A stretch of DNA of 64,000 bases from a virus. Positions 10,166-63,100 of the stretch are shown here, one piece after another (within the stretch, counting starts at the first letter, position 1; each line of letters begins with the position of its first letter). A program made the translations under genes and the position numbers. The notes below the pieces were generated by a model. It saw only the letters and a program-made list of their open reading frames with translations. It made no database searches and was not told the origin of the DNA. The stretch is taken from the IMG/VR virus record IMGVR_UViG_3300035126_000842, positions 32,001 through 96,000 of that record. One strand, given 5' to 3'.

Positions 10166-13100
10166 TTACAGGCGGCTAAATGATTCTTTGGTTTGTATGT
10201 CGAGAATAGCATCTGTTGTTGTTCCTGAGAAACCTAAAAACTTCAACCAAAGATTTGCAATTTTAGCAGAATCTTTCTGTTGCCATTCATACGGACCTAC
10301 TCTTTTATCATAAAATCCTCTCTCATCACCAACTGCTGCTAATATACCATAAGTAAGTGATTTTGAAATAAGATCAATACTAGGTTGTAATGTTGCCATT
10401 TTAACTTGGAATAGGCTAGTGTATGTTTGCAAACCCATACCTGGTAGTGGCATAAAAGTATTATGCTCTTGTTGGAAACCTAAAATAAGTTGTAACGCTT
10501 TATTAAAAGCATAACCATCTAAATGAAACTCACCTTCATCTGCTGTTCCAAAAAATGGTAGAGGTGCTGATTTCGCTCTTAATTTTTTGTAGCGGTCTTC
10601 GTCATCAGGATCATACTCAAATAGCATACGACTAGTTAACCATAACACCAGTGCTATCATTACATCAGTAAATGTTTTAATTAAATTCCTCTTTTCATAA
10701 GGAGTTAAAGTACTCCAGTAAATGTTGAAGTTAGGATTTTTAGTAAAAATATTTTTGAAGTAATTGGCTATAAATCTTAGTGATGTTATATAGTAACCTT
10801 CTTGAACATCACCTGTTGCATAATTAATTCTTGGTGAAAACGACCATGCATCAAAAAATGATTTTTCTTTATTGTATTTAAAACTAGAACCAAAACGATT
10901 CATAAACATCATGTAAAAGAACCGTTTCATACTAAGAACCTGGTTATAAATAACAAACTTATCACCGTAGCTTTTACCTAAAGCTGATGAATCACCATTA
11001 GTTAATGCAATTTGTTGATGAATTCTATTTTTTATGAGATTGAATTTTACACCACCAACGTCATAAGTTTGATCTATACCACTTCTAAGAGAAAGTTTAC
11101 CATCTTTAATTTCCCATGCTTCCATGTAAGGTATTTCTGACTCCACTCCATTTGTAACAATCTTAACCTTTTCATAGTACATTCTTTGTGCCCATAATTT
11201 AATAGCACCTTGTGTTTCTAACCAAGTTCTGGGAGCTAATACAAATGATTGCCAATCTGCAGCATCTTGAGTATATGATCTATTAAAACTTCTACCTATT
11301 CTTTGTTTTGAACTACCTTGTTTTGGGTCAAAAGCATCTACAAGCATTTGCTCGGCAGTATATGTACCGCCTTGATAAGCATGTGTAGTTTGACCAAACA
11401 TATATTTTATTGCCCATGCTTCACCCTGAGAATAACTTTTCTTATCAACACCATCTTGTGCAGCAAGGTTAATTATGTTTTGCATACCCATTTGCACTCG
11501 GTTTCTTATAGCTGATTCTGGAGTAGAAAGAAATACAGTAGAGGTAAATCTAGTTAAAGAATTTACAGCCTTAAGGAGCATATGATTGTCAGATAGAAAA
11601 CCTCTTGTATTTTCACCTTCAAATATAGTCCTATTAAAAGATTCTACCATTTGTCTTCTAATACTAGCTTCTTTTTTATTTTTAGCACCTGCGAAAATTG
11701 TCAGGTTGTTTTCAAGAAACGCGTATTTATTAATCTTGTCTACTTCTTTCAATACGTTTTCATCATCAGCTAGTACTTTTTCTAAACCTTTTGCAATAGG
11801 CATTATTTTGACTTTCTCTTTTACCTCTTCTATACTGTAGAAATATCTAAACATAGAATAAGGTATATCCATGCTTACTTTATCTAATTCAATAGGATAT
11901 TTACCTGCAACCGGTATCTTAGATAATTCATCACCAAAAAAGTCTAGGGATACTAGTTTAAGTCTAGTACGTTTTTCTTCTTCTGTTTCAGCACTTGTTA
12001 TATTAGAAAATCCTTCTTCTGCTTCATCACCTGTTTTACCATACAGTTTAGCTTTAACGCTAGATAAGAATGATGAAAATCCAGATCTTGTATGACCAGA
12101 TAAAGTTTTTTGAGCTGCTTCAAAGTTGCTTTCAAAAAAAGAAGGTACTTGAAAATTAAGTCTTCCTAATTTAGAAGTTTCTTTTTGCTGTTTAAAAGAC
12201 ATGCTTTTTATATACTCAAGTAAATCCCACAGAGGTCTATCTGTTCTTTTTAAATTATAGTAATCTGTATTTACATACTTAGTTAAGTCTGTCTCAGAAT
12301 TCATAAAAGATTGATATTCTGAGTCAGATAAGTCAGGAATATTTGTAAGAAATTCTTCAGTTATTTTTTTACCTTTTGATTCAGCATATAATACTTCTAT
12401 TGGTTTTGGCAACCATTCTCCAAAAGCATTTATTGTAACACCCATTATACGAGGAGTTTTCAATTCCTCTTTAATTGTTACTTTATGATAGTTTCTAGAA
12501 GGAAAGTTTGTACGGATTAATTCGCCTTTACTGTTTCTAAATTCAATCATGTCCTTATAATTATCATTTATTTTTTGCTCCATATGGACTCCATTTGGAA
12601 CATAAGCAAATGATACTTTACCTCCTTCTGATACCTCATATTTTGTATGATGATCATCTATAAACTTTTTGAAGTCTTTGTTTTTTAGCGCTTTGATAAA
12701 ATTGTTGTCAGTACTAATAAAAGCTATGTCTACATACTTGCCGTTATTAATATTCTGGATAGCTTCTTTTCTATATATTTCATAAGCAGCTGTTTTACCT
12801 TTATATTGTATATCATAGAATTTACTCCACTCACCATTTATATATTCTTGCTCTGCATTAGAAGGTTGTTTACTTCTGAATTCTTTAAGAGCTTCACTAA
12901 TGTTAATGTATTTTTCATACAAAGCAAAGTTAGTTTGCTTAAGAGATTTATTTGCAGGAGGTTCTTCTGATTCATATTCAAAATCTCCAGCATATAATTT
13001 TCTTACTGTGTGCAATAACTCTATATCTTTTTCTGAAATATTTTTAGGTAAACCTCTTTCAATGTCAATTTCAATGTTTATTCTAAATAATTCATTTTCT

Positions 13101-16129: not shown

Positions 16130-16132
16130 ATT

Positions 16133-16993
16133 TTAGCAACTAGGAGGAACAGGAAACCCTGCAATAGGGTCAATCCCATTGTTAAAGTTATCATTTTTTC
16201 TTACATCTTGATTGTAGTCATCGAAATTTACTGTAGAAAGGTCGTAGTAACTTAGATCTATACCTACAAAACCCTCTTCTTGTAAAAAGTTGTAGAAAGA
16301 AGACATGTCAAAAACCTCATCCTCAGTATCTTTCAAAAACTCATAACCTGTAATGTTTGAATTATTTTGCAAATTATATTTGTTTACATAGTTTTTATAT
16401 AGTACAGGTTCTGTTTCTGGATTTATATATCCTTCTTGTAAACTAATTTTTTCAGGACCAAACGAATCACCAAACATATTTATACCCATTTCTTCATCTA
16501 ATCTAGCTCTTTTAACTAAATCTTCAAACTCTCTCTGTTTAGCAATTTGGTCGTAAGTCATTAACTCTTCTACTACAGGCGATGTTTCTTCTTTAACATC
16601 TACTACAGGTACTTCTTCAAATACATCTTCTTCTACTTTATTAACTGTTTGTGAATCACCAAACTGATTAATACTAGTTTGTCTAAGCATATTAGCATTA
16701 TATTGTTCAATATAACTTTGATAATAAGCATCTATTAAACTTGCAGGAGGTTTTATTTTAAGCTCATGTCCTCCTGTTACAGGATATCTACCTACAATAT
16801 CAGAATTATAGAGCTTGTTTATTTTAGCTGCTATTGCATTAGCTACTTTAAAAGCTTGACCTCTTGCTGAAAAATCACTATCCATAATGATAACACTATC
16901 AAAATTTAGAGATTTTACTCTTTTTGAAATCATAAGAGCTTTTATATCTCTTATTAATCCTTTACGGATATCTTCTTTAGCGCAAATATTCAT
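16133..16993 (-). CDS. Cargo-cluster protein (286 aa), acidic C-terminal half
   Basis: ATG at 16993 overlaps the upstream TGA (ATGA) and is preferred over TTG 17002. The N-terminus resembles that of the 1987-aa protein. Its only Cys are C4 and C286. Confidence 0.7.
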   Translation of the reverse strand: MNICAKEDIRKGLIRDIKALMISKRVKSLNFDSVIIMDSDFSARGQAFKVANAIAAKINKLYNSDIVGRYPVTGGHELKIKPPASLIDAYYQSYIEQYNANMLRQTSINQFGDSQTVNKVEEDVFEEVPVVDVKEETSPVVEELMTYDQIAKQREFEDLVKRARLDEEMGINMFGDSFGPEKISLQEGYINPETEPVLYKNYVNKYNLQNNSNITGYEFLKDTEDEVFDMSSFYNFLQEEGFVGIDLSYYDLSTVNFDDYNQDVRKNDNFNNGIDPIAGFPVPPSC

Positions 16994-17748
16994 ATTCCAC
17001 AACTATTAATGTCTGTTATATCTAAACTGGGTAATCCCGAAGGAGAAATTATAACCTTATTACCACCTACAAACTCTTTAAATTCTTCTATATCTTGTTT
17101 AGAGCCTAATATATGAATTTGTTCTGGTTCAAATACAGAAATTACTGTTTGTATAGGTATAGCGTAATTATCTCCTTCTATTCTGTTTATAACAGCATCT
17201 GTGTTTTTTAAACTTTCATCATATTTAGGAGCAAGTATATTTTGAGAAGTTTGTTTACCTATTTTATATAAAGCTTCCGAAAGAGGTCTATCCATATCAT
17301 CAATGAATTCACCACTTGTTTTTTCTCGAATAGGTTTACTAATATTTAATAAAACAGGTAATATATTTTTACCATATTTTTTACTAAACTCTTTATTAGT
17401 TGTAAAATTATATACTCCTTCAATACTATTTAAAGTATTAAATTTAGGTTTTGTAGGTTTAAACTTATCAAATTGAGCATTTGTGCCATGATAAACAATA
17501 TCTTTTACTTTACTATCGGGAAATATAGTAGAAAGATACTGCATATATTGAGCTTTAGTGCCAATACTTGCAAGTTCTGGTGAATCTTTAAATACACCAT
17601 CAATGGCTTCCATTTTTCTTTTAAATGAATCCATAACATCTTTATTTTTAATAATAGATGTAACAAACTCATTTTTATTATTAATAAAATATTCTTTGAA
17701 TTGTTTTTCAGAATACTGTTTTCCTTTATATGTTATAATACAACTCAT
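16990..17748 (-). CDS. ADP-ribosyltransferase-fold protein (ART-PolyVal-like)
   Basis: IVYHGT...FDKF...GVYNFTT...YG...LLNISKP...DAVI...VFEPEQI. Its only Cys are C3 and C250. Confidence 0.7.
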   Translation of the reverse strand: MSCIITYKGKQYSEKQFKEYFINNKNEFVTSIIKNKDVMDSFKRKMEAIDGVFKDSPELASIGTKAQYMQYLSTIFPDSKVKDIVYHGTNAQFDKFKPTKPKFNTLNSIEGVYNFTTNKEFSKKYGKNILPVLLNISKPIREKTSGEFIDDMDRPLSEALYKIGKQTSQNILAPKYDESLKNTDAVINRIEGDNYAIPIQTVISVFEPEQIHILGSKQDIEEFKEFVGGNKVIISPSGLPSLDITDINSCGI

Positions 17749-18425
17749 ACTTCTTTCCAGATTTTATTATTTTTGATTTTATATATAGTCATTTTAGCAA
17801 CATTATACTTGATTGCTAAATCTTTCACAGCTAAATCAGAGTTTCTAATTTCTTTAACGATGTCCCAGTTTAATTTAGATGAAGGATTACTCTCTCCTTT
17901 AACTCTCTCAGAAAGTTTGTTACTTCTATTTAAAGCAGCAAGTCTTAGATTTTCTCTATGTGTTTTAGAGAAAACTTTTTGTTTTCCTGATTCTGACATT
18001 TTTCTTTTAGTTTCATCAGATACATAATGAGATTTACCTACTTTAGATAAACTCAATAATTTCTTAGTTTCGTCAGATACAATTTTACCTTTTAGTTTTT
18101 TAGATATTTTTAGCTTTGTAGATTTTTTTGTGATTCTACCTTTAGCACTATACGCAAATTTTAAATGATTTAATAAATTTTTTGTATTATCTAAAAACCA
18201 TTGTTCTAGTTTAATACAATATTCTGGTGGGCAATAAGCAACTATAGCAGTGCTAAATACTTCTTTACCATGTTTATTATAAATGTTTTGAAGTCTTTTA
18301 TTGCTGTGAATATTTTTCTTCAAACAAAAAAAGTGGTCTTTTAATCTTTTTTTAAGATTAACAGAACTTCCTACATAGTTCTTATTTTTATAAGATATAA
18401 TATATACACCTGAATTTAATTGCAT
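17745..18425 (-). CDS. Free-standing GIY-YIG homing endonuclease with NUMOD3-like repeats and a C-terminal HTH
   Basis: SGVYIISYKNKNYVGSSVNLKKRLKDH, conserved LEQ, repeated VSDETK(K/R)xxSxS, and GESNPSSKLNWDIVKEIR. It overlaps both neighbouring genes. Confidence 0.85.
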   Translation of the reverse strand: MQLNSGVYIISYKNKNYVGSSVNLKKRLKDHFFCLKKNIHSNKRLQNIYNKHGKEVFSTAIVAYCPPEYCIKLEQWFLDNTKNLLNHLKFAYSAKGRITKKSTKLKISKKLKGKIVSDETKKLLSLSKVGKSHYVSDETKRKMSESGKQKVFSKTHRENLRLAALNRSNKLSERVKGESNPSSKLNWDIVKEIRNSDLAVKDLAIKYNVAKMTIYKIKNNKIWKEV

Positions 18426-19174
18426 TTTTTCTGAATTATATTTTCTTCTTTTAAAATCTTTTCAACTTGTTCATAATCTTGTAAATATACATCTAAAAAC
18501 TCAGAAAACAAAGAACTTGCTTGTTGTTTTTGTTGTGGGGTTATAGTTCCAATTTCATCAGAAGTTTTAATTCTAAAAGCTCTTTCTTGAGTTACAAAAC
18601 TGTCTGGATATTCTTTACTTGCTTTACCAACATCTCCTATTTTTTCAGCATATCCTTTTTTAACTAATGAGTTTAATAATTGTATTTCTTGACTACTATT
18701 TTGATAATCAGAGTATAAATTACTTTTGTAGTCTTTCTTAGCTAAATCTGCCATTAAAGTATGAACTATTTGTCCATAACCTTTATTCTGATATTCTTCA
18801 TTAATTTCAATAGATAGTCCTAATTGTCCTTTTTCTCCATTGTTTACAAACTTAACTCTACCTATTTTTTTATTATTAAGCTGGATAAACATCCAACCAA
18901 TACTTGTTTCTTCTGATAGTGTTATCCCTTTAGTATCAAATGTAAATTTATTAAACCTTAAAGCTTCATATACAGCATTAGCTAACTCTAGATTAGATTC
19001 AAATAAATCTTCTACTCCTGGTTTTATACCAGTAGATGTTTCTGAAGTAGGAGTAAACCCAGTATCTTCAGTATCTACATACCCTTTTGCTAGATAGTAT
19101 GCTACAGCATCTTTAAAACCTACTTGTTCTACAAGAGATTTAAACTCTTCTGAATTTTTATTTATACAAAACAT
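18416..19174 (-). CDS. GNAT-family acetyltransferase-like cargo protein
   Basis: IGRVKF...SIEINEEYQNKGYGQ (GNAT motif A QxxGxG) ...LLNSLVKKGYA. Its only Cys are C3 and C251. Confidence 0.65.
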   Translation of the reverse strand: MFCINKNSEEFKSLVEQVGFKDAVAYYLAKGYVDTEDTGFTPTSETSTGIKPGVEDLFESNLELANAVYEALRFNKFTFDTKGITLSEETSIGWMFIQLNNKKIGRVKFVNNGEKGQLGLSIEINEEYQNKGYGQIVHTLMADLAKKDYKSNLYSDYQNSSQEIQLLNSLVKKGYAEKIGDVGKASKEYPDSFVTQERAFRIKTSDEIGTITPQQKQQASSLFSEFLDVYLQDYEQVEKILKEENIIQKKCN

Positions 19175-19175
19175 A

Positions 19176-28100: not shown

Positions 28101-30401
28101 GTTACTTTCATCTATTGCAAATAATCTATACTGATCTGCTAAAAATTCCATTGCTTCCTCATAGGTATCTATTTCAGAAGCGGGTTTTGTTATTTGTTTA
28201 TTCTTATAGTAGTATGTAACTCTACCTTTTATCTTTTTTACTTCTTCAAAAAGCTGTTGCTTTTGTTCTGGAGTAAACCACATTTCAGTAAACTCATGCC
28301 ATGCTTCATGATATAAGTCAGTATATTGTGATCCATTATATAGTGTAACACCTGCTTTACTCCAAGTAGCAAAAGCTCCTGAATTTACTATATCAAAAAG
28401 TTTTTGCAATGGTACATTTTTGGTTACAGGATTACTGTTAAACCATTCTAATGCTTTTTGATTAAGCTTATCTGTAGATAAGTTTGCAATGTTTTTAGAC
28501 ATCCATAGTACATCTCCTAAATCTTCTTCTGCTACAAATTCATCTTTTTGAGTACTAAATGGTTCAGTAAAATTTATTGCTAGTATAGGATTCAATATAG
28601 GCAATGTATCACTACCTTCTGATACAGTAACCGGTAGTTTATAATATTGTGCTATGTAGTCTGCACTATTTATTTTTGTTAATGTAAGAATTTTATTATC
28701 ACCATCTTGAACTATTGATGGAATTTCAATTTCTTGTTCATTAGGATTAAGCAAATAATTTTGCTCTAGACTTTGCCGTAAAGCTTGCTTAAAACCTTCT
28801 TTGTTATTAAGTTTTCTGTATTCTGTATAAGTCCTATCTGTTGGATTATAAATCTGTACATACCAATTTGACTCATAAGACTTTAGATTATGTTTTGCTG
28901 ATGCAGTTTTAAAGGTTATTTCTTTAAAATAAAAAGATTCAAATATTCTTTGTTTTTCTTCGGTGGTTAATGGTACCCCTTGATATAGTATTTCATCATT
29001 ACTCATTAACTCTACTAATGCATCTACAATAGGAAGTAAACGCTCGTTTTTCCTTTCTGTAGGAGACCCTAGTTTATTATTACCTAAGAAAATTGTAATG
29101 TCAAATTTATCATTTATGACCAAGCGAGCATTCTGTTTTACTCCAGAAACTTTAGCTGGGTTATAACTAACTGATGTTATACCACTTAAAAGCTCTCTCA
29201 AATCATTTGTAATATAGGTATCTCCTTTTTCTTCTAACTGGGATAGTTTAGAGATGTATCTTAAATAACCTATTCTACTATTTATATCATCTATTTTTAT
29301 TAAGTTACTTTCAGGATTTACTAAAATTTTGTCTTTAATAAAACGAGCAATATTTCTTGTAGTAGAAAGCAGATTATTTACATAGTCCTTTTTTTCGTTT
29401 TCTATTATTTCTATACTATTTTCTAACTCAATTATTCTATCAGCATTTCTTTCTGTTTCAAGATTTTCCTTGAGTGTATTTAAAGTATTGACTTTATACT
29501 TATTAGGATTTAAAACCATTCCTCTTTTTAAGAGTAAGTCTAATAGTACACTGTCTGTACTACCGTCCATATATTTATCTATGTTGTTTATTACTTCGTC
29601 TGGAATACGAGAGTAAGAAGCTATATAATAGCTACCACTAGAATCAATAACTCCATCATCATTAATAAACACAGGTTCCCCTTTAGCATCTGTTATAAGA
29701 AAGATATATTTGTTTCCTTTAGGATTACCATAAATTTTAGAAGAATCTACATCTTTTATATTATAAAGCCTGATGTAAAGGTTATTTAAAACAGGATCTT
29801 TATCTGAAATAGTTTTGAGAGTATTACTTAAAAAGTAATCAATAAACTTTCTAAAAGCTTTTACACCGTTGCTTTGAATTACATTTTTTGATAAATCGCT
29901 GTTGTCATAAAACTCAGAATCAGTTGGTTGAAATAACAAAGCAATGTTCATTGTATTAATTTCAAACAAAGATTCTTCGTAATCTCTATCATCAACAGTA
30001 GTAATACTTATTGGAGTTATAACAGGATCTACAGTAGGTTTAAGATTAAGATACTCAAGTACTTTGCCCTTAGAAGAATCAGTTGCTATATTCCAAGGTA
30101 TATTTCCAAGCTGTTCAACAATATACTCTGGAAAATACTTTGCATTTTTTTTATTTCTTGCTGTATTAACTAAAGCTACGGCACCTACTAAAGTAGCAAG
30201 TAAAGCTTTTTCATACTTTTGAGACGGTTCATCTACTATATCCGTAACTTGTTTATAGTAATCTTGAATAAAACTTTTAAGGTTTAACTCTTGATTTGGC
30301 TCTAAACTATCAAAAGCTTTTTTATAAGATAAGACGAAATGATTTTCAAAATTCTCTAAATCTTCCGTTGTAATGTTGCAAGAAGTAGCTGATATATTCA
30401 T
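19176..30401 (-). CDS. Virion-packaged RNA polymerase polyprotein (3741 aa): zincin-like domain, two-barrel RNAP core, C-terminal DUF4326-like and NADAR-like modules
   Basis: SGGDFDVDKL (DFDVD at 23718-23732, D2224), preceded by GDRIP and EADAQG, matches the DFDxD motif of crAss-like virion RNAPs such as phi14:2 gp66. YHEAWH at 28296-28310. Its only Cys are C8 and C3741. Confidence 0.88.
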   Translation of the reverse strand: MNISATSCNITTEDLENFENHFVLSYKKAFDSLEPNQELNLKSFIQDYYKQVTDIVDEPSQKYEKALLATLVGAVALVNTARNKKNAKYFPEYIVEQLGNIPWNIATDSSKGKVLEYLNLKPTVDPVITPISITTVDDRDYEESLFEINTMNIALLFQPTDSEFYDNSDLSKNVIQSNGVKAFRKFIDYFLSNTLKTISDKDPVLNNLYIRLYNIKDVDSSKIYGNPKGNKYIFLITDAKGEPVFINDDGVIDSSGSYYIASYSRIPDEVINNIDKYMDGSTDSVLLDLLLKRGMVLNPNKYKVNTLNTLKENLETERNADRIIELENSIEIIENEKKDYVNNLLSTTRNIARFIKDKILVNPESNLIKIDDINSRIGYLRYISKLSQLEEKGDTYITNDLRELLSGITSVSYNPAKVSGVKQNARLVINDKFDITIFLGNNKLGSPTERKNERLLPIVDALVELMSNDEILYQGVPLTTEEKQRIFESFYFKEITFKTASAKHNLKSYESNWYVQIYNPTDRTYTEYRKLNNKEGFKQALRQSLEQNYLLNPNEQEIEIPSIVQDGDNKILTLTKINSADYIAQYYKLPVTVSEGSDTLPILNPILAINFTEPFSTQKDEFVAEEDLGDVLWMSKNIANLSTDKLNQKALEWFNSNPVTKNVPLQKLFDIVNSGAFATWSKAGVTLYNGSQYTDLYHEAWHEFTEMWFTPEQKQQLFEEVKKIKGRVTYYYKNKQITKPASEIDTYEEAMEFLADQYRLFAIDESNSVVTKAIKAIFKAIKKLLDSLFSKTTALDNNINAFDNPAIREIFNTLYTGDIKKLEAYRYDINQGSTNILQKTIVGVGDKKTRYKFTSEETLLLQKTIDSIIFSAGITPMLMQAGAQDKILGSVRLLFKVDNIESVYQLISRGLQSRYNLFKSLVEQTTNEDLKKSYESTVKLFGIALQNLGDVTKLKSRTENQGIIKYYIEENEFINEIYQDEDEDFLSKDDGQYSDKGNNSTSVHNDFSPYLKFMFTKMPKIKVLKDNTLYINDALTEGIKKVGDLFYKVNMLSGAESILTKGEFYELFSKNKYSVAGNGDIVLGSHYVERDSAGLPLTLDNANIAITKLISTPGLVGRLDPLSIPEIIKAYAQNGSSITDKLFYASVYGIIGGNTLEKWQQLNIQNAENVIEEKAKAYPAFYEHVKEHFFTFNSLLKSLSREKVLPIIANVSYDSKKKQYILESYIGNTEFISFWNKREIEYTDFVSKLSVEEQNRYGLEQVGSELKFNAAKFFAHPENKKLYDPTSSQYKSTVVFTYQDNIYKIVNYLKLLGILNSSIEYPDTLIKDMLKDSTIIDGLNALNMVLFNNRNKLSSVDNIVNLLKKGDPTIKDLKQLTLVEKIFAAANQIEITTNDNMYTNPSGDIENEFSLQSSMMRYVQLYNDENLKESINQSPNENPFWADSLLNKLVYQQGKKFRLFKASGIANDTNTGITENDNNVFTANIEAMINLRIHNAYRMYQHAGKSTQHYMSIDKVPFISYATADVQAENVFYNQLYNYFIAEAIRVYQTKQGEHDNVEMFSKFGKKYLFFDYIDSETTNLVESLIKEVYDSKRNDNVENVITSVKQKLQGTQADAIKAAIKVEHDSRITAGINSFAKIDPTVLTNIDASINKTLGIEVEADGQRLYKHSYMNMTLFNIESNIFIYGDLANYNLDKDEFSKRNALWGSGGNPVYSDPDYLNLIKSIFDFSDSSSEIINMQELPVAILEDVKVTSENYNEYEEAIKSIIEDVKVAEKRTKPYSDMKEADAQGVVLLPTYRMLSLSSGNWDNTKELYYNKIMRGETLPLNISEFFPSLKYQFAGPAKYKKDNVYKNIQAFTLKFNIVPLIPPVLNPKIGEEQKQRYLNLIYNKMLNEKIGLLTYVSGSKNSFFFDKTSNLFYDNEGNLTDKPFVKNFINTTFFKDQLYIAPVFKGKSLVSSQKRTKILDLFFENGKLKSEFKKYGPLVEEYKQSIADATQMFKDKLSATLQIDLKNPDKKGMEKFAGYIKELLKKKGYITEDETDMIAVIDGAFAYDYLGSGLAVILDNIIANIIEKNIIQQKFPGEPLIQVANTGWEFVETDPLLKRVLKDKVRYSNKLKSYRKAKDGTILPAQVKISMQGDFYKLLNLTHTDGNSIGTIPRLNEMMAKPEWKKLHMDKFIITGDRIPVHAHPSMEVLEIEEFLDPIASNIIVLPSEIVAKSGGDFDVDKLTLLYPSFDEEGNILKYSLSYNESKAKIKELNSKLKVEEERSAAYYKLLRKILSAVTTDLKRTGMQNVAELASANKAKQYRKVVNNNQEALAEYDELTLEGDETLESIEKKIEDINQKIADIFTNKSELETKEDTLTEAEKQMLKVAEEYQKEVYYYKNIAGALGNRINKNVASLLLIEELLPYLILPTTDENLKEISKRNDNITLSEFPIATNYSYITDPFQSLLKLDYNSAGKKSLGIIAVFSSMLNEMAESNLQMPNAIIGKNGSVTVVKIPFNYKTTKHEIDVIVDSDNVTVEIDALDYSALTNLNGKDKGDYTGQKIQASVDVEKDPWLLRLGIRKNTASFQLGLTGAGVNEEPVSIFLLNPMVNLYVRYTEIAKTPLLPFFGRILNNTKSPSTVDKFKSIIQPNEFRKLVEQSNYSSEIKNKVNTILGQKFTKTSIVKLNNVFAEESKLVYESLDFNAAHYIGNSDYNTNVLNQAIGLIHYLALNQMFDSTINKLSFALRPDRQRFASILDFILFDRKFQELYSTMPEFTKESLLSIKRNSVRSSFYINTGSLPKTLLESLSPSMIQVVDFIYRNHYQDKIYESQMPFKDTKTAIKLYSNIIRSVMLQKLLNSRYKNDVYKGFNVIASTEFDADNNAVQTSVLKNDFNILLTSAVKVIEVTDEANNVVEKSLYVNRLNIALFAAGTSSDLDSSDYYVAYNIVKPDYRILKGTKRLEKYLIEYEIAKNKYPFNDFKNSTYYKQVYKNIEEDATYKDIKSKKPNLSKSQYAYQLFLRDMATISSMPVSVLSTKSISQTSTNIGYFINQIKVAYANVLLQAYPVLNNLNTKIKDNSDTLQIEIVGIKDNLEYYRKQIQTLIDPTKRTLSNSFDNMVLSDILTGVGLFSVMQNNTSSTSSKVQQLFVNESLLKNLATVAMSKPELEKLLKSIESDVVAANNHKKPGYIYVVPEQESETKNTLDVVPYRNIKTTKSTLFVAKSVSTSTTDTTQTAVSTQPETARTIYDKINKDKKTKSTNVEIAGQGDLSDVKYSAKTFWSEVVPEARAWFGDNLIIAYRGKKTNTFLQNYKGRLSGEPALTIGNPFDWQAETGTRDEQGIKSTKRFIHWMITGDNMGVTEATPEYRQAIIDDIKNGKLKNRPIIYYQEKGYATHATALDYLINEYNWNQPTTPTVSEGIEINSKQTGLGNDLTNVHFATNGKSKFDIIPTDKSLKNPDSVKLDSNDLAVKWAIDKGLKTYADAYGQSVEAWYKSNNAMSKGIPKGTEGDAYDMKLMIGLITDKLKQYPNLVTQITERGGLAFLDKSTHTMGTGRWSSKNPKNMFMNALKQAYQNVSATPTVTAKPTTQTLESKTELEVYIPDYSLAKSVHNTIQGRVAKGENFATVKNELYKKFYDSISEKYDQIPKDVNFNIRYVFGNNIIETKSIQDEARIKNVLVYDSITNRDPEIEKILTGLLYINAFVLYQKFGKINKQFLPPNLVAKVVVRETIDKANINENELNKVLEIIRNC
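19685..20197. repeat. 15-bp exact direct repeat (TTACAGTAGGTGTAG) flanking the NADAR-like module
   Basis: Copies at 19685-19699 and 20183-20197, both encoding TPTV linkers. Confidence 0.8.
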
Positions 30402-30421
30402 ATTGTAAATATAGTAAAATT

Positions 30422-33400
30422 TTAAGATTTAGGGTTATTAGGAGTACATGGTTTGTTAAATATAGCCTTAGCATCAACTTCAGGTAAGTTGTCCATATCT
30501 TTACCAGACCCAGACGGTGTATCAATTTTTTCTCCTTCACCTGCAGATTCTTGTTTAAATGATAAGATCTTATTTTTGTTCTTAGAAACAGAATCTACAA
30601 AACTAGATATTGATTGTGATTTAAGCTGAGGCTCTGCACCTATTGCAGAAAATACAAAGTAATTTAAATTATCACCAACAATTTTTTCAAGTACAATAAA
30701 GTTTGTTAAAGGATTATTTAAATCAGTAATCGATACTGTTCCTAAACTAACATTAGCTAAGGTATTTATTACTTTTCGCAGAAACTGATTTTTATCCGAA
30801 ACAGTAGTCCTTTCAGAATTGTAAAAACTTTCAAAGTAATTAAAAAGCTCGGTTGCTTTTGTATCAAGGTTATCTCTTAAGCTACTAAATTCTGAATAAA
30901 AAGGAGATTCTTTAGTTAATATTTTACTGAAAAGCTCAATGATTTCGTTTGAATTTAAACTACTAACATTAACACCACTTAATTCAGTTATAAGATTGGT
31001 TAGCAAAGATTCATCAAAAATAATTCTATTAAAGAGATTCATTTTTAATCTGTAAAAAGCAGCTTCTGCTTCTACTACATCAGCACCTTTAAGTAAAACA
31101 TCGCTAAAAGTTTGTCCTTCAGTTAATACTATGACTTTTTTATCAAATTCATTTTCAGCTGCTATATACTTAGCAACATCAGTCTCACCTGTTAAAATTC
31201 TATTACGTAATATATCACTACGTTGTTCACTTAAAACTGCAATATCAGCGTCTTTAATAAATCTTTTACTGCCTGTTACGTAAATTTTATTTGTATTTTT
31301 TTCATTTTTTCCTTGATTTATTTGATTTAAAACAGGATTGTACACTAAACTATCTAGATTTTCATAACCTACTTTTTTATTAAAAGCATTGATTATAGCA
31401 AATATATTTTCATTTGTAAACTCCAAATCACCCGCAAAATTTTTTGTTTTATTTATTTCAGCAAGTCTGTTTAGCAATAAATCATCTACATCTATAAGAG
31501 TGTATTTTCTTTCACTTTCAGGACGACTATTGTATTCTTGTACTAACCGTGTTTTTCCTATACCAGGAGTACCGTATATAAGTTTACCTACAAAAAACTC
31601 AAGGAAATCTTCTGTGGGTTTTATTATATTGTCTAATAAGTTTTTGTTTTTATCAAAAACAGATTTACTTATACCAAACCTAGCAACAAACATTTCTTTT
31701 TGCTCAGGAGATGTTGCTGTTTTGTATAAAGAAACCGCCTGTCTATTATCTTCATTAAGAAGTGTATTGTACCAATACTCAAATAAACCTGGGTTTGCAT
31801 TAAAGAAATTATTAGAAAGCGTTGTTATCTCAGAAGGTTTACTTACAGAACCTTTTGTGTTGTTAAATACAAATACAGGAATTCCATTCACAGAAGTTAC
31901 TGTTACAGAACCAACCTGTTTATTGTCTTTGTATATAGGATAAGTAGTATCAAGTTTTATAGATGACACATTTCCTATACTAGACGTATTAGTTTGTGTA
32001 GCAGTTTCTGTAGCAACTGGTTCTTTTAAAGCAGCTAATTGTTTATAAGCATCACTATCTTTTCTACCAACTTTTTCAAGAGCTTGCATAGCTTGCTCTT
32101 TAGTCATTTCTCCTTTATTAACAGCATCTACATATTTTGCATCAGATATAGCGTTGATTCTATCGATATTTATTGGTAATTCTTTTTCAAGCTTATCAAG
32201 ACTTTTTTGTCTATCATCAATATTAAATTGATAAGTGCCATCTAAAGCTTCAAGTCCATTAGGATTATCTATTAATTTTTGTTTAAACGTTTCAATTCCT
32301 TTTAAATTAGTTCGTTTAGAAACATCATACTGTCTTTGATTTTCTTTTAACTCTTCCTGTCTTGTTTTTTCTATATCATCTATCTTAGCATCTACATTTG
32401 TCCCCGTAGGAGTTTCTTTTAAAGCAGCTAGTTCTCTTTCTAATTTAGCAATAGTTTCTTTTTGATCTTTTACAATTCTTTCTTGAGCATCTTTATTTGG
32501 ATAATTTGGAGATTCATATATTTGTAAACTTTGTTTAGCTTGATCTAACTTATACTCTAAATTTTCTTTTTTGTATAAGTCAAGGTAATTTTTAATATCA
32601 CCTTCCATAAATTTATCCTGCTGATCAAGTCCCTTTACTTTATCTGCTGCTTCTAGTAAATCTATAAGTTCTTTTGGAGCATATTTTTCAACAACTTCTT
32701 TTCTCTTTTCAGGACTTAATACAAGAGCATTTCCTGTTTTTGGATCAGATGCTTGAAACTCTCCATTAGATTGTTTTGGAAAAATAGACCACTGTCCTTT
32801 TTCAAAAAAAGCTAGAATATCAAAATTATCGCCTTTTAAAATTACTCTAAAATAAGCAGCTCCTTGAGCAGGCTCAAATAATCCTTTTACATTTTGTAAT
32901 CCAAATTTTTTTCTTTTAGCTTCTATATCAGAAACAGGAGCTGGTTTTTCTTTCTTAGGTTTAGCAGTCCGTTTTTGAGTTTCCTCTTTTTCTTTTTTAG
33001 CATCTTCTAATCTAGCTTCTGTTTTTTGAGCACTAGGTTTAGCAGTTGGGGTAGGTGCTTTTTTAGTTTCTGGTGCGCGTTGTTCTCTTGTAGGTTTACT
33101 AGGTGCAGCTTTCTCTAACTTAATTTTATATAAATCAGGATATAATACTGCAAGTAAATTGTTAAGGTACCGTATTTGGTTGTTGTATTTTTGAACAACA
33201 TTATACAAGTCATCAAGACGTTCTTTTTCTTTTTGTTTAGCTCCTTCTACAATTTCTATAGAATCTAGATTATTTTCTATAGCTTTTTCAAGTTCGTCAG
33301 CTTGTTTCCTTAATTTGTCGTATTCTGTTGTAGCAGAAGAATCCTCCGCATCGATTAACTTTCTTAGTTCTTCAGTGTTTAACCGTTTGAAGTTAGTATT

Positions 33401-36400
33401 CTTTTTAAATATTTCTAAGTCGTTAATAGCTTTAGTTGTAATTCTAACATACTCTTTAAGATAGAATACTGATTGTTTTATTGCTTTAACTAAACTAGCT
33501 ATTATTTTTTCTAGAACTGATTTCTTTTTGTTAATAGTTTCTATTTTTTCTTCTATCTCTTCAAAGCTCAAAGTTTCAAAGTTTTTGTTAGCTATCATAT
33601 TTCTATAATAGTTAATTTGATCAGATAGATCTTTATCTATTTTTTTAAGTTGTTCTAAGTCTTCTTTAAGATATTTAATCCTATTAGCTATATCGTTAAA
33701 CAACTGCTTTTCAGTTCTAAACTGTTTTTTATATTCTTCTATACTTAAAGTTATGTTTTGTCCTCTCTTTGACTTTCTAGCAGAATTTGATGATATTGCC
33801 TCTTCAAGAGTTTTAATAGTATTAAGTATTTTTTTAACTTCTTCAAAACCTAATTCAGAAGTTTCATCTAAAAGCTCATTTAAATATTCTAGTGTGTTTT
33901 CAACATTTGTAATACTTTGTTCACCTCTTTCTTTTCTTTTTTCAAGAATGCCTATTGTATTATTAATAAGTTCTATTCTTTCTTCTAAAGAAAGAAGGGA
34001 TGCATCAACAGGTTTTTTAACTTCTTCTTCAGAAACTTCTTCTTTTTTCTTTTCTTCTTCTGCTAAACCTTCTTCTGATTTTATTTCTTCTTCTGCTTTG
34101 GGTATAGGGGGTTGTTTTCTACCTACTTTAAGAGCTAATCGTTTTGTACCACTGCTTGAGTCTACAGAAGCTTCTATCTTAGTATAAGCTTTAGTTTTAT
34201 TACTATCCTGTATAGTTAAAGGTAATATAAACAAACCTGTTACTTTTATACCGGTTCTTTGTTCTAATAAATCAGCATAACTGTTCAACTGATTTTCGTC
34301 AGAATCTCTGTAGAAGAAAATGCTTTTTACATCAAAGTAAGGTTTTATTCCGTTTTCTTCTATACTTAAAAAGTTAGTTATTATTTCTCCTACTTCAGGA
34401 TCATCACGCAAATTTTTATCTTTGGAAACTATTTTGTTTTGGTTTTCTATTATTTTTTCTTTTACTAAATCGTATTTATCACCAGCTATTTTTTTAAGAG
34501 CTGCTTCCATAGCATACGCTTTTCTTCTATCAGAACTAGAAGTTTTAAGATCTATTAGTAAAGCTTCACCTTTATCATTTATTGCAAGAATATCTGGAGT
34601 TCCTGCTACAAATTGTCCGTCTATCTTTCCCCACAGCGTAGGTATATCAGCTCTAAGAGTATAACCTTGTGCTTCAATATTAGATATGAAATTTTCTAGA
34701 ACAGATCTGAGAGTATCTAAATTAGCATCAGTGAATTCAAAAGCTTCAGGATTTTCTTTTTGTAATTGACTATACGCTTCTTTAAACTTTTCTTTACTTA
34801 TAGTTTTATCACCGATAAGAGTTCTTAATAAACCATCTATTATGTTACCTCGGTGACTAAACTTTTCAGTTGCAAATTCTTTAGTTCTATATAAACTAGT
34901 TACACGTATCCACTCTAAAGTACCGTCTATAGGATTACCCTCTTCATCAACTTGTACATAATATGACCTTTTAGTATCAGGGTCTTTTACTATTTTAAAC
35001 TTAGCATTATTTAATAACTCCAATGCTTCTTCTATTTCTTCTTTTGTAGTAGGAGTAGATGCTGCATTTTCTATGTTTTGAGCTAGCTTATCAAATTTAT
35101 CTATTGCGCTAACAAAAGAAAATCTTAGCGGACTATTAAAAATAGATTTAGCAAGTGCCTCTACAGCTTCATCAGATAATCCAGAATTTGATTTACGTAT
35201 CTTATCTTTGATTCGCTCAAAATCTTTTTTATCCTTACTTAATTGTTCTGCAGCTTTCTTTTTCTTTTCTTTAAGCTTTTCGGTTTCTTTATCTACTTTA
35301 GATAAAGCTACCTTTTTATCATAAAAAGCATTAAGCAGTTCATCATATTCGTCAGATAAACGATCTACAGGAATAACAGAATCTGTTACGTCTGCACTAG
35401 GTTTTATAAAATCAACACTACCATCTTCATATTCATTTATAAATACACCATACGTGCTGAACATAAAATTGTAAAGAGCATTGTGCTCTAACAAACTAAC
35501 CCCTCTGTTAACCATATTAGCAACAAAGCTAGCATCGTTTAATATTTTCTCTAGATAATCAGTAGTATCATTTACTGTTGTAGCAAAACCTTGAGGATCT
35601 TGTAAAACTGAAATTATACTAGTAAGTAATTCGTTTTCAGATTCTAAGGAAATATAATCTAAAATGTAATTAAGAGATTCGTTTATATTTTCAGTTTTGA
35701 CTACAGAACTTTTTCTTTCAGGATTTTTATTTAGTAGATCTATGTAAAGTTTATAGTCATTAAGTAAATTCTGTCTTTCTTCATCCGTAAATTCAGTATT
35801 AGATTTAATTTTAGTTCTAAACGAATCAAACTTTTTAGCTAACTCTTGTAAAGCTGCTATCTTTTGTTTAAGATAATTTTCTTTTACTTTAGCCTTTTCT
35901 CTATCTTCAGGTGTAGTGGTAGGAGAACTTTGTGTAGATTTAGCTAGTTCAATTTCTTGTATAAGCTGATCTATTTTGTATCCATTTAATCTAAAAGAAT
36001 CTACTAATACTAAAACATCATCAGAATCTATTTCTCCAAATTCAGGGAGCATAGTCATCATAGATTCTAACATTTTGCTTTTTCTAGCTGTACCATCCAT
36101 TATAGTATCTTCAGCCATTATAAGCATTTTTCTTACTGTTTCAATCGCATTCTTTTTTGCCAGTAGTTTTGCATACATGGGGTCTTTTTTATCAACCCCT
36201 TTTAAACTTACAGGATTAACAAAATTATATTTATCATGTAGTTTTTTAATAGACTCTGCTCCAGAAATAGCTTTTGCAATATCAGATCTTAGTTGTGGAA
36301 CTTCAGTAATGTCTTTACCAAAAGCTTCAGCTAATGATTTATCATCTAATTCAAGTTGACTTCTATAATCATCAACAAGATTATTATAGAATCCTCCTTT

Positions 36401-38227
36401 AATAGCATTAGAAACATGTTCAAATATAGATAATCTTTGCGCGTCTTTTGATAATTTAACATTACCTGTTTGACTAGCAGCATTCATTGTTTTGTTAGCA
36501 GCACTTTGTTGAGCAGCATTTACAGCATTAGGATTAAGTATGTCTGCATAACCTCTACCTAAATCTAAAAAGTTTTTATCAAGAAAATTAGCAGATTCTT
36601 CAAATCCTAATTTTAGTTTTTCTTTTTCCTCTTGATATGCTTTAAATTTTTCAGGATCGTAAATTCTTTGACCTGCTGTTAATCCTAAGTTTGCTAGCTT
36701 ACCCATTCCCCCCATTAAACCGCCCGTTAAGAAACCACTAAAGAAAGTTTCTAAACCTTGTGCTGTAAATTGTTCTCCTAACCCTAGTGCGACAGATTCT
36801 TTAAGCAGCATGTGCTGGTCTATCATAGGATTTTCAAATAGCTTGGTGTAATAATTTATAACACCGGCACTGGTAGCTTCCTGTAAATTTTCTTGAATTG
36901 CTTCTGCAAAGTTGTACCTGGTATAATTAAGAAATGATTTTCCTATTTCAGTAGGTCTAAGACCTGCTGATACTTTTTGCAAAGGAGTACTAAGATATTT
37001 ATAACCTTGTCCTTTTATTTTAGAAATACTACCAAACTGATTAACTTCATCTAATGCACTTAATAAACCTGTACCTTTAGGTAATTGTTTTATGATATTA
37101 TCTAATCCTACTTTATTAGAAAAGAAAATAAGAGGTAGATTTATCATCGTAGTAGCAAAAGCTGCATTTTCAGCAGCTGCTCTAATACCTGCAATTTTTT
37201 CTTCTGTAGGGTATTGTCCTGTAGCATCATACTCTTTTCTTATTCCGTCTTCAACCATTTGATTGATAACAAGACCTCCTTCCATTTGAGCTTCATTAAG
37301 AACTCTAGCAGCTGCTCTTACATCCGCGTAAAAAGCACCAAAAGAAGTAGCTGTTTTACCAAGAGCATTTAATCCTTTAAAAGTTTCAGGATAATTTTTT
37401 AGTAAAGTTGCAGTATTTGAAAGAGGGTTAAAAAAATTAGCTACCGGACCATCTAAAGCTTTACCTATTTTACTAAAATCATATATGCTTTTAACTTCAT
37501 CAGCATTTCTTGCTAATTTAAAAATAGTCTCGTTTGCATTAAATACTTTGTTTATATTTCTAACAAACTTACCAACATTAAGAGCTGTACCTGTAGCTAA
37601 TAAACCAGCGCCAGGAGCAAGACCTATTCCTGAACTACTTAATAATCCAGCAGTTGCTGCAATAACAGCTTCTTCTATAATAGCACTACCTGCAATACCA
37701 AGAGTAATACCTGTATTAAGTAAAAAGTTATTAGTAAATGCACCAAACCCACCACTAGTGTCATATCCTAATTTCATCATTCTGGATATAGAACCAGCTG
37801 ATTCTTCGTCATAGTTTAAAGGATCAAATAAATCTAAAGTAGAAATGAAAGGTTTATTAGAAGCAAACGATTCCATTGCTATATGACCCATTGCTTTAGC
37901 AGATCTCCCTAAATTTGACATCCAAGAACTATTCTCATTATATAGTCTATCGTTATCTCTCCAAGGTGAATAACCTAATCTGCTAAAATTAGGGTGCATA
38001 TAGTACCTTTCAAATGTAAGATTCATTTGAGAATCACCATATACTGAAGGAACACCTCCTGATGTAGAAACCAAAGACGGTGTAGTCTTAATGTTTTCTT
38101 TTAACATCTGAGCTGCAACATCTCCATTAAAAGTAGTATTCTGTGGAGCGCCCGTTACATTACCAAATTGATAAGCGCTATATATAGCAGAATCTATATC
38201 TTTTTGTAAATCGCTAAAATTATCCAT
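30422..38227 (-). CDS. Giant polyvalent virion cargo protein (2601 aa): hydrophobic N-terminal segments, PD-(D/E)xK nuclease, P-loop kinase-like domain
   Basis: G/A-rich hydrophobic stretch near residues 170-220. AGTPDILAINDKGEALLIDLKTS...QLNSY at about 34240-34920. IYGTPGIGKT...LIDVDD at about 31100-31590. Its only Cys is C2594. Confidence 0.75.
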   Translation of the reverse strand: MDNFSDLQKDIDSAIYSAYQFGNVTGAPQNTTFNGDVAAQMLKENIKTTPSLVSTSGGVPSVYGDSQMNLTFERYYMHPNFSRLGYSPWRDNDRLYNENSSWMSNLGRSAKAMGHIAMESFASNKPFISTLDLFDPLNYDEESAGSISRMMKLGYDTSGGFGAFTNNFLLNTGITLGIAGSAIIEEAVIAATAGLLSSSGIGLAPGAGLLATGTALNVGKFVRNINKVFNANETIFKLARNADEVKSIYDFSKIGKALDGPVANFFNPLSNTATLLKNYPETFKGLNALGKTATSFGAFYADVRAAARVLNEAQMEGGLVINQMVEDGIRKEYDATGQYPTEEKIAGIRAAAENAAFATTMINLPLIFFSNKVGLDNIIKQLPKGTGLLSALDEVNQFGSISKIKGQGYKYLSTPLQKVSAGLRPTEIGKSFLNYTRYNFAEAIQENLQEATSAGVINYYTKLFENPMIDQHMLLKESVALGLGEQFTAQGLETFFSGFLTGGLMGGMGKLANLGLTAGQRIYDPEKFKAYQEEKEKLKLGFEESANFLDKNFLDLGRGYADILNPNAVNAAQQSAANKTMNAASQTGNVKLSKDAQRLSIFEHVSNAIKGGFYNNLVDDYRSQLELDDKSLAEAFGKDITEVPQLRSDIAKAISGAESIKKLHDKYNFVNPVSLKGVDKKDPMYAKLLAKKNAIETVRKMLIMAEDTIMDGTARKSKMLESMMTMLPEFGEIDSDDVLVLVDSFRLNGYKIDQLIQEIELAKSTQSSPTTTPEDREKAKVKENYLKQKIAALQELAKKFDSFRTKIKSNTEFTDEERQNLLNDYKLYIDLLNKNPERKSSVVKTENINESLNYILDYISLESENELLTSIISVLQDPQGFATTVNDTTDYLEKILNDASFVANMVNRGVSLLEHNALYNFMFSTYGVFINEYEDGSVDFIKPSADVTDSVIPVDRLSDEYDELLNAFYDKKVALSKVDKETEKLKEKKKKAAEQLSKDKKDFERIKDKIRKSNSGLSDEAVEALAKSIFNSPLRFSFVSAIDKFDKLAQNIENAASTPTTKEEIEEALELLNNAKFKIVKDPDTKRSYYVQVDEEGNPIDGTLEWIRVTSLYRTKEFATEKFSHRGNIIDGLLRTLIGDKTISKEKFKEAYSQLQKENPEAFEFTDANLDTLRSVLENFISNIEAQGYTLRADIPTLWGKIDGQFVAGTPDILAINDKGEALLIDLKTSSSDRRKAYAMEAALKKIAGDKYDLVKEKIIENQNKIVSKDKNLRDDPEVGEIITNFLSIEENGIKPYFDVKSIFFYRDSDENQLNSYADLLEQRTGIKVTGLFILPLTIQDSNKTKAYTKIEASVDSSSGTKRLALKVGRKQPPIPKAEEEIKSEEGLAEEEKKKEEVSEEEVKKPVDASLLSLEERIELINNTIGILEKRKERGEQSITNVENTLEYLNELLDETSELGFEEVKKILNTIKTLEEAISSNSARKSKRGQNITLSIEEYKKQFRTEKQLFNDIANRIKYLKEDLEQLKKIDKDLSDQINYYRNMIANKNFETLSFEEIEEKIETINKKKSVLEKIIASLVKAIKQSVFYLKEYVRITTKAINDLEIFKKNTNFKRLNTEELRKLIDAEDSSATTEYDKLRKQADELEKAIENNLDSIEIVEGAKQKEKERLDDLYNVVQKYNNQIRYLNNLLAVLYPDLYKIKLEKAAPSKPTREQRAPETKKAPTPTAKPSAQKTEARLEDAKKEKEETQKRTAKPKKEKPAPVSDIEAKRKKFGLQNVKGLFEPAQGAAYFRVILKGDNFDILAFFEKGQWSIFPKQSNGEFQASDPKTGNALVLSPEKRKEVVEKYAPKELIDLLEAADKVKGLDQQDKFMEGDIKNYLDLYKKENLEYKLDQAKQSLQIYESPNYPNKDAQERIVKDQKETIAKLERELAALKETPTGTNVDAKIDDIEKTRQEELKENQRQYDVSKRTNLKGIETFKQKLIDNPNGLEALDGTYQFNIDDRQKSLDKLEKELPINIDRINAISDAKYVDAVNKGEMTKEQAMQALEKVGRKDSDAYKQLAALKEPVATETATQTNTSSIGNVSSIKLDTTYPIYKDNKQVGSVTVTSVNGIPVFVFNNTKGSVSKPSEITTLSNNFFNANPGLFEYWYNTLLNEDNRQAVSLYKTATSPEQKEMFVARFGISKSVFDKNKNLLDNIIKPTEDFLEFFVGKLIYGTPGIGKTRLVQEYNSRPESERKYTLIDVDDLLLNRLAEINKTKNFAGDLEFTNENIFAIINAFNKKVGYENLDSLVYNPVLNQINQGKNEKNTNKIYVTGSKRFIKDADIAVLSEQRSDILRNRILTGETDVAKYIAAENEFDKKVIVLTEGQTFSDVLLKGADVVEAEAAFYRLKMNLFNRIIFDESLLTNLITELSGVNVSSLNSNEIIELFSKILTKESPFYSEFSSLRDNLDTKATELFNYFESFYNSERTTVSDKNQFLRKVINTLANVSLGTVSITDLNNPLTNFIVLEKIVGDNLNYFVFSAIGAEPQLKSQSISSFVDSVSKNKNKILSFKQESAGEGEKIDTPSGSGKDMDNLPEVDAKAIFNKPCTPNNPKS
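32021..32430. repeat. 17-bp exact direct repeat (TTCTTTTAAAGCAGCTA) encoding LAALKE
   Basis: Copies at 32021-32037 and 32414-32430. A companion TTCTATATCA (DIE) occurs at 32369-32378 and 32921-32930. Confidence 0.75.
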
Positions 38228-61653: not shown

Positions 61654-61654
61654 A

Positions 61655-63085: not shown

Positions 63086-63100
63086 ATACTTAATATAATA

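Follow-up and report, generated by a model that had tools for sequence, protein, structure and literature searches.

Terminal cysteines at the junctions of a crass-like phage cargo block and a putative disulfide-linked chain of injected proteins

One cysteine per facing end in a six-protein block

The window considered here is a stretch of 64,000 nucleotides (positions 32,001 to 96,000) of the 122,313-bp IMG/VR virus record IMGVR_UViG_3300035126_000842, which CheckV rates as complete. Between positions 10166 and 38227, its minus strand encodes six proteins that, judging from their sequences, probably form the cargo block that a crass-like phage packs in its virion and injects into the host. 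Each end of these proteins that faces a neighbouring member bears one cysteine (Cys), and the two outer ends and all the interiors bear none. At the level of sequence, this rule, its conservation among relatives, its covariation with the fusion and fission of the cargo genes and the modular character of the end peptides are all established, and we regard it as very probable that cysteines link the proteins at their junctions.

The block, all of it on the minus strand, starts with protein A (30422..38227; 2601 amino acids, aa), whose sole cysteine, C2594 (codon 30446-30448), lies 7 residues before the C-terminus (...NKPCTPNNPKS). Protein B, a homologue of the two-barrel virion RNA polymerase, with 3741 aa (19176..30401), has only C8 (30378-30380) and C3741 (19179-19181; ...IIRNC). 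Three small proteins, the links, come afterwards: a GNAT-fold link of 252 aa (18416..19174) with C3 (19166-19168) and C251 (18422-18424; ...QKKCN), an ART-PolyVal link, also of 252 aa (16990..17748), with C3 (17740-17742) and C250 (16999-17001; ...INSCGI), and a link of 286 aa whose fold is unassigned (16133..16993), with C4 (16982-16984) and, as its last residue, C286 (16136-16138; ...PPSC). The latter is counted from an ATG, the longest open reading frame (ORF), with a TTG start, having 289 aa. The last member, protein C (10166..16129; 1987 aa), has C3 (16121-16123) as its sole cysteine. Between the GNAT and ART links there is a GIY-YIG/NUMOD3 homing endonuclease of 226 aa (17745..18425), which is not a member of the chain and has three internal cysteines (C34, C65 and C70) and no terminal one.

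Altogether, the six proteins translated from these ORFs amount to 9119 aa and 1036 kDa, with 10 cysteines for the 10 facing ends. A preliminary description of the window, made from the letters alone, had given these counts and positions, as well as the cysteine count of the endonuclease, and all of them were reproduced exactly. It had also offered for comparison an ORF of 662 aa (4806-6794, plus strand) with 14 cysteines, a count that stands, and had taken it for PolB, an identity for which Pfam yields just a weak RNase_H_2 match. The cysteine background in the other ORFs of the window is 1.20% (142 in 11,873 aa), from which the probability of finding no cysteine across the 9023 internal positions is about 1e-47, and that of finding all 10 within the 80 junction-facing terminal positions is 1.5e-21. 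Chance is thus excluded as the origin of the pattern in the window.

The assignment of the large proteins relies on two cultured phages and on several environmental loci (L-numbers designate the IMG/VR or named-phage loci compared, and P-numbers homologous proteins). The motif GGDFDVDKL at residue 2224 of protein B aligns with GSDFDIDKM at residue 1361 of phi14:2 gp66 (catalytic DFDxD), and BLAST relates protein B to this same protein (E=1e-5) and to crAss001 gp50 (1.4e-8). Protein C is weakly matched by crAss001 gp49 (E=3e-4) and phi14:2 gp65 (8.5e-4), with stronger links through L002 and L003, and it is homologous over about 1800 aa to proteins of 2024 aa (L001), 1910 aa (L002) and 2407 aa (L003). 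Homologues of protein A in the same loci (1549, 1184 and 1718 aa, respectively) have one C-terminal cysteine apiece, and no direct BLAST match was obtained between protein A and either crAss001 gp47 or phi14:2 gp67. Correspondence of A, B and C to phi14:2 gp67, gp66 and gp65, and to crAss001 gp47, gp50 and gp49, would be the best explanation of these similarities. As in those phages, where packing in the virion and ejection into the host are known, the window combines a B protein with DFDxD, a homologous C protein and the same cysteine rule; unlike them, it has six members instead of three, GNAT, ART and 286-aa links, and a B protein as large as 3741 aa. A stretch of protein B (residues 589-855, about 27837-28637, minus strand) resembles residues 2051-2311 of crAss001 gp47 (E=4e-4), near the C-terminal end of that protein, which suggests that the border between A and B has shifted between lineages.

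Other searches were negative within their scope. Neither the 286-aa link nor the N-terminus of protein B, each scanned singly against IMG/VR, gave any relatives, and the C-terminal 1500 aa of protein B found no match by tblastn among GenBank phages. Proteins B and C had no match in a PDB sequence search. PHROGs offered no family for A, C, the GNAT link, the 286-aa link or a 961-aa protein encoded upstream of the block (see below), and Pfam none in protein B or the 286-aa link. Nor did the latter show any resemblance to the additional N-terminal part of the C protein in L003.

Conservation, fusion and fission among crass-like phages

Four distant homologues of protein B (P0002-P0005; 24-57% identity, 3506-3867 aa) keep exactly two cysteines, at positions 3-8 and at most 5 residues from the end. 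Their neighbours on the contigs have one cysteine each, the upstream protein at its C-end and the downstream protein at its N-end, the latter in one case with a single additional, internal cysteine. A profile search of IMG/VR with the conserved centre of protein B provided 80 loci at 26-34% identity, 74 of them distinct, and it was in these that cysteines were counted by position, as the preliminary description had proposed. Facing cysteines within 10 residues of the end occur on both sides of every junction (135 of 135), on the N-side at position 3 (90 junctions), 4 (42) or 5 (3), and on the C-side 0-2 residues from the end in 106 cases. The expectation that the first protein would have a cysteine only at its C-end and the last one only at its N-end was borne out as well, since a C-terminal cysteine is found in none of the 26 complete last proteins and an N-terminal one in a single case among 19 complete first proteins. 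Internal cysteines number 27 in 475,542 aa (0.0057%). As a control, none of 15 adjacent pairs of genes outside the chain showed facing cysteines. Four loci (L027, L050, L073 and L074) have an extra protein within the chain, each time with both terminal cysteines, which, together with the ART homologues described below, agrees with the earlier prediction that new effectors can join by acquiring such ends. Two interrupted genes were seen: in L087:15518-21744, a 440-nt gap separates two parts of protein C of 422 aa and 1506 aa, and in IAS virus (L012:15812-24794) protein B is divided into 837 aa and 2159 aa, with ambiguous bases nearby. Insertions, frameshifts or sequence errors may be behind both splits.

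The terminal-cysteine rule holds in all nine named crass-like phages compared. In phi14:2, gp67 ends in its only cysteine, the cysteines of gp66 are limited to C3 and C2179, and that of gp65 is C3. In crAss001, the positions are C2339 in gp47, C5, C1334 and C2404 in gp50, and C5 in gp49, and the same rule, with a few more internal cysteines, is found in DAC15 and IAS virus. The preliminary description had framed the rule by gene order. The rule for the ends stands, but gene order is not what sets it, because the first protein conforms to it even in crAss001 (gp47), DAC15 and IAS virus, where its gene lies on the other strand.

Natural fusions of the cargo genes give a clearer view of which ends go together. 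Where B and C are fused (crAssphage LMMB and Rudgehvirus), protein A has its C-terminal cysteine and the BC protein has C3 and lacks a C-terminal one. Where A and B are fused (Fpv1 and cr50_1), the AB protein has only a C-terminal cysteine and protein C has C3. In this line, the ART domain of L001 is fused to the N-terminus of protein C with no cysteine at the border, the counterpart in the window being a separate link with two cysteines. These variants indicate that the C-end of A pairs with the N-end of B, and the C-end of B with the N-end of the next protein. An arrangement in which B closes on itself while A and C are bonded to each other was also considered, and the fused genes exclude it. 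Judging from all these sequences, the rule is conserved wherever the cargo genes are separate. An apparent exception is crAss002 gp33 (L009:17088-17190), with its first cysteine at position 35 from the annotated start. The codons ATG AGT TGT (MSC) occur at 17185, 97 nt 3' of that start and after a terminator-like hairpin, and a start there yields the same N-end as in crAssphage LMMB and Rudgehvirus; the annotated start is therefore probably too far upstream.

Small enzyme links, matched ends and neighbouring genes

Two of the links in the window are putative small enzymes joined to conserved end peptides. Residues 84-211 of the ART link match PF18760 (ART-PolyVal) in Pfam with 51.1 bits (cut-off 31.2, E=3e-13), and weak fold matches point to ARTs of the diphtheria-toxin and PARP types. 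The GNAT link reaches 18.4 bits for Acetyltransf_1, below the Pfam cut-off of 20.7, and its AlphaFold2 model (mean predicted local distance difference test, pLDDT, 65.5) has fold matches to GNAT enzymes, PA3270 and SpeG among them, with E values of 6e-4 to 6e-3. In models for both links, built on family alignments and of moderate confidence, Cys3 of the ART link (pLDDT 75.6) would come directly before a beta-hairpin (residues 4-13), with Cys250 in a disordered tail of 20 residues; the GNAT link is predicted to have a GNAT-like core followed by a C-terminal module of two helices (213-243), with the last 7 residues, including Cys251, disordered.

Among 120 free-standing homologues of the ART link (138-441 aa), 73 have one cysteine at position 3-4 and another at most 3 residues from the end, mostly with no internal cysteine. 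The link of the window and these two-cysteine homologues share a strongly conserved module of some 88 aa at the N-terminus (MSCIITYKGxKYSEEQFKEYF...; in the window MSCIITYKGKQYSE...), and the homologues finish in a few types of C-end (...NNKIDRKC, ...GKIDRVC, ...FVTKC and others). A natural control is offered by 37 homologues of the ART core, of about 219 aa, without both cysteines and without the N-terminal module. These short proteins (P0009-P0034 and others) are found on cellular-looking contigs, at least two of them named Candidatus Nomurabacteria / Paceibacterota, and they may be a source or a sink of the phage link. As for the GNAT link, its last 45 residues (ITPQQKQQA...EKILKEENIIQKKCN) recur with 80-100% identity on proteins with unrelated cores, which include Zeta-toxin/AAA_33-like, other GNAT and ART domains, although most of them match no assigned family.

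Eight contigs bearing such links (L096-L103) show the chain order of the window, that is, B, one or more links, and C. In 12 of 12 cases, the GNAT-to-ART junction of the window among them, what comes after a C-end of the form (K/N)(I/K)I(D/Q/E)(K/R)xC is an N-end of the form M(S/A)C(I/K/Q)I(I/T)Y. After C-ends of a second type (...ILK(N/K)NC, ...KDNC and ...IIRNC), the next protein starts with M.C(P/I)N..., twice within the chain of L099. Even the N-end of the orthologous last protein tracks the C-end that precedes it: after the first type, protein C starts with MACIITY (L096, L098 and L100) or MSCQIIY (L103), after the second type in L099 it starts with MTCPNIN, and other N-ends occur elsewhere. 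At the codon level, one comparison of adaptors shows 10 amino-acid changes and 8 synonymous differences in 45 codons, and others show 6-18 synonymous differences over 80 codons, so the conservation is not solely due to recent transfer and selection on the protein is indicated. The C proteins at L096:12844-, L098:11775- and L103:11375- start with the N-adaptor of the ART link and continue with ...KQDIEGFK.FV, the closing motif of the ART core, and they look as if an ART link that lost its core had been fused to C.

The preliminary description had also called for junction peptides to be modelled as pairs. For the GNAT and ART links, complex prediction gave an ipSAE score of 0.58 (runs at 0.58, 0.56 and 0.64), with at least 63% of contacts in common between runs and a partner pLDDT of at least 78; the best of three controls scored 0.00. 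In the calibration, which holds only roughly here because custom alignments were used, 58 of 80 solved complexes and 2 of 110 mismatched pairs passed the mark, and scores of 0.60 or less that still passed it came from only 7 of those 80 complexes and from both of the passing mismatched pairs. The prediction thus lends weak support to a GNAT-ART complex, and as no interface was returned it is silent on the termini.

Homing endonucleases typically target conserved, functionally constrained sequences. GIY-YIG/NUMOD3 ORFs sit exactly at the cargo junctions, often two per chain (L096, L098, L100, L102 and L103), and do not obey the cysteine rule. The one in the window lies exactly at the GNAT|ART junction, its ATG (18423-18425) overlapping the codon for Cys251 of the GNAT link. 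Members of its family occur at the same type of junction in L098, L101 and L102; L099 has this junction type with no endonuclease, possibly an empty target site. From these positions in the window, L096, L098 and L100-L103, we read the GIY-YIG/NUMOD3 family as specialised for cargo-link junctions. A docking code could be proposed, tentatively and with more doubt than confidence, in which a C-end such as ...KIIDKxC would be recognised by MSCIITYKG... and ...ILKxNC by M.CPN..., fixing the succession of the cargo. Any enzyme gaining both adaptors would then become a disulfide-linked, injectable link, and the junction endonucleases would spread and shuffle links among phages.

The large proteins encoded upstream of the block, all on the minus strand, are also poor in cysteine. 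Those of 961 aa (38227-41112; C128/C134), 796 aa (41183-43573; C488/C499) and 914 aa (43591-46335, with PG_binding_1; C553/C558) have exactly two, closely spaced, and one of 1897 aa (47913-53606) has none. In the 961-aa protein, C128/C134 and the N-terminus MAT(Y/F)..GVTD are kept in L001-L003, and this N-terminus is also found in a protein of L075. As a contrast, cysteine-rich proteins are encoded on the same strand at 46337-47065 (242 aa with four CxxC pairs) and at 61102-63340 (183 aa with 8 cysteines, 476 aa with 22 and 79 aa with 7).

A putative disulfide chain and its alternatives

How these ends may work can be proposed as follows. In the particle, the end peptides of neighbouring members would dock non-covalently, and a disulfide would afterwards join the C-terminal cysteine of each member to the N-terminal cysteine of the next. 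As no phage oxidase was found, the bond would close once the particle has left the reducing cytoplasm; the search for Erv1/ALR proteins is uninformative in this regard, since it gave no match in any control genome. The product would be a linear hetero-chain of some 1 MDa, running head to tail from A through B and the GNAT, ART and 286-aa links to C, in which the purge of internal cysteines prevents wrong cross-links. Overhangs beyond the cysteines are just 0-9 residues, so the chain would be nearly a single linear polymer, suited to tail constrictions that demand partial unfolding. It would keep the composition and the order of the cargo fixed for packing and for exit through the tail, and would fall apart when the host cytoplasm reduces the bonds.

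The closest precedent comes from cyanophage A4 (Anabaena phage A-4L), where cryo-electron microscopy of the virion revealed a disulfide between Cys1715 of gp27 and Cys5 of gp26 in the pre-ejectosome, which steadies the C-terminal helix of gp27 inserted in a cleft of gp26 within a pentameric ring (PNAS 2025, PMC12002296). In that phage, gp27 (1717 aa) and gp26 (1114 aa) have no other cysteine and their genes are adjacent. The likeness to our block lies in large ejection proteins from adjacent genes, with facing terminal cysteines and otherwise cysteine-free; in contrast, A4 has one such junction, without RNA polymerase or small enzyme links, and the bond was described as a ring stabiliser and not in terms of a general rule or of a chain. 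Since a disulfide was observed for this signature in A4, it is the likeliest chemistry at the junctions of the window as well, and by that analogy we think it probable. For the further step of an ordered train released by reduction we would give even chances, and we infer both the order of exit and the reductive release. The remark in the preliminary description that no account of such a system was known to its author has to be corrected in view of A4, as one comparable junction is published (PMC12002296), and its interpretation as a whole comes out partly supported.

Crassvirus particles themselves have been studied in detail. In crAss001, gp47, gp49 and gp50 were detected in the virion by mass spectrometry, the tail and the portal vertex showed disulfides, and reduced and non-reduced samples were both analysed, with no mention of the cysteines of these three proteins (PMC10172136). 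The same work concluded that the tail constrictions require partial unfolding, the order being 'likely controlled by packing and interactions' (PMC10172136). The paper on the phi14:2 polymerase mentions neither cysteines nor disulfides (bioRxiv 10.1101/2020.03.07.982082), and our literature search returned no account of cysteines or disulfides in Crassvirales cargo.

Parallels can also be drawn with other systems. Polyvalent and polymorphic effector cassettes with ART-PolyVal (PF18760) resemble the block in their delivery by mobile elements and in having varied enzymatic cores between conserved flanks, whereas in the window the modules are separate small proteins with a cysteine at both ends, not domains of one polypeptide. 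Split inteins or trans-splicing were rejected, as a C-intein of about 35 aa would not fit ahead of an N-terminal cysteine at positions 3-8, the C-terminal cysteine is at the very end and not at the start of a 100-aa module, and Pfam shows no intein family. The RNA polymerase of the Schitoviridae is of the single-subunit T7-like kind. This giant enzyme, packed in the virion and termed N4-like, and the ejection proteins of the family (N4 gp50-52, DEV gp71-73) show a suppression of cysteines for which passage through the periplasm was suggested as the reason (PMC11445570). Our block shares with them a giant virion RNA polymerase, partner ejection proteins and strong cysteine suppression; unlike the block with its 10 terminal cysteines, they have essentially none, and hence no junction pairs.

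The main rival to an ordered train would be a static one, closer to A4, where the junction disulfides are staples of a symmetric inner-capsid body (a pre-ejectosome above the portal, arranged as a ring or stack), with no thread and no role in the order of exit. We hold this to be rather unlikely. The A4 bond does exactly that, stabilising a pentameric ring with a C-terminal helix in the cleft of its partner (PMC12002296), and the C-module of the GNAT link is predicted to be helical; yet chains of 5-6 members with small soluble enzymes (GNAT, ART and kinase-like cores) fit a symmetric scaffold poorly, the short overhangs and strictly cysteine-free outer ends suit a linear polymer, and the crAss001 maps have no ordered body for gp47, gp49 and gp50 (PMC10172136). 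That the terminal cysteines stay unpaired, each serving as a packaging or sorting tag, as the site of a covalent modification or as an attachment to a virion part or DNA, seems improbable. Such a role would suit the unpaired C-terminal cysteines of some Intestiviridae proteins and the ART links of L097 and L100, whose Cys3 has no C-terminal partner, but it leaves unexplained why terminal cysteines number twice the junctions, why the outer ends are free of them (0 of 26 last and 1 of 19 first proteins) and why both are lost together on fusion, and the same signature is a disulfide in A4 (PMC12002296).

Sharing of a metal ion (Zn, Fe or Cu) by the two cysteines of a junction, an alternative raised in the preliminary description, is very improbable: cysteines are common metal ligands and a metal bridge would also release on unfolding, but each junction offers two cysteines only, with no conserved His, Asp or further Cys near the ends, the distance from the cysteine to the terminus varies, and the A4 bond is a disulfide (PMC12002296). 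Hardly credible, finally, is that the pattern is a by-product of nucleotide-level features of the junctions (translational coupling or endonuclease targets), or of chance in cysteine-poor proteins. GIY-YIG genes do sit exactly at some junctions with highly conserved flanking coding sequence, and cysteine depletion is known for the ejected proteins of N4 and DEV (PMC11445570); however, the Schitoviridae proteins have no cysteines at all, terminal ones included (PMC11445570), the cysteine codon is found in varied sequence contexts, 2-7 codons after the start or 0-9 before the stop, the rule is kept with A on the opposite strand (crAss001, DAC15 and IAS) and at many junctions free of endonucleases, and the adaptors have many synonymous changes, chance being excluded by the probabilities computed above. 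Variable spacing and the opposite-strand A genes rule out a nucleotide-level junction motif as such.

Several points weigh against the disulfide chain. The evidence for the bond, in the phage of the window or in any crassvirus, is sequence and analogy and not chemistry, and the analogy with A4 rests on the signature, given that sequence similarity to the block is not detectable: comparing A4 gp26-gp29 with the block by BLAST, the best value for gp26/gp27 was E=0.67 and the best of the four queries, gp29, gave E=0.058, and phmmer listed no match for gp29, gp28 and gp27. Moreover, the A4 bond staples a symmetric ring and not a thread. The 122,313-bp genome yielded no thioredoxin-fold protein, a difficulty for the formation of the bond, chiefly in phages of anaerobic habitats. 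Among the sequences, gut crassviruses have several internal cysteines, and a protein encoded two genes upstream of A in Intestiviridae has a single, unpaired cysteine 1-10 residues from its C-terminus (861 aa with C860 in LMMB, L007:5576-8161; crAss002 gp30, L009:6393-8066; Rudgehvirus gene49, L014:5950-8223). Proteins that precede an ART link at L097:5014-9822 and L100:7615-9336 have the N-terminal cysteine and lack the C-terminal one, and represent either an exception to the rule or a different type of joint; they end in ...GKFY(R/K)YVPKK and have an internal C...CxxC cluster 140-220 residues before the end. As to the adaptors, their matching could come in part from endonuclease target sites (ascertainment) or from co-conversion of the flanks, and not from docking.

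Relative to the literature searched, the new elements are the rule across Crassvirales, the chains with multiple links, the plug-in links with matched ends and the endonucleases that target their junctions, and what the window adds to them is a six-member chain with GNAT and ART links of a modular adaptor family. In the human gut no phages are more abundant than crassviruses, and their delivery through a narrow tail of some 1 MDa of protein, the polymerase needed to start infection among it, is an open problem. If the proposal is true, a covalent tether cleavable by reduction would be a concrete and testable answer to the order of cargo delivery, and would account for the extreme depletion of cysteines and for the evolutionary tolerance of the splitting and fusion of giant genes. 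It would also provide a rule for finding injected effectors, namely a small protein next to the polymerase with one cysteine per end. In this line, modular links whose ends are conserved point to a natural plug-in system by which enzymes would be delivered into bacteria.

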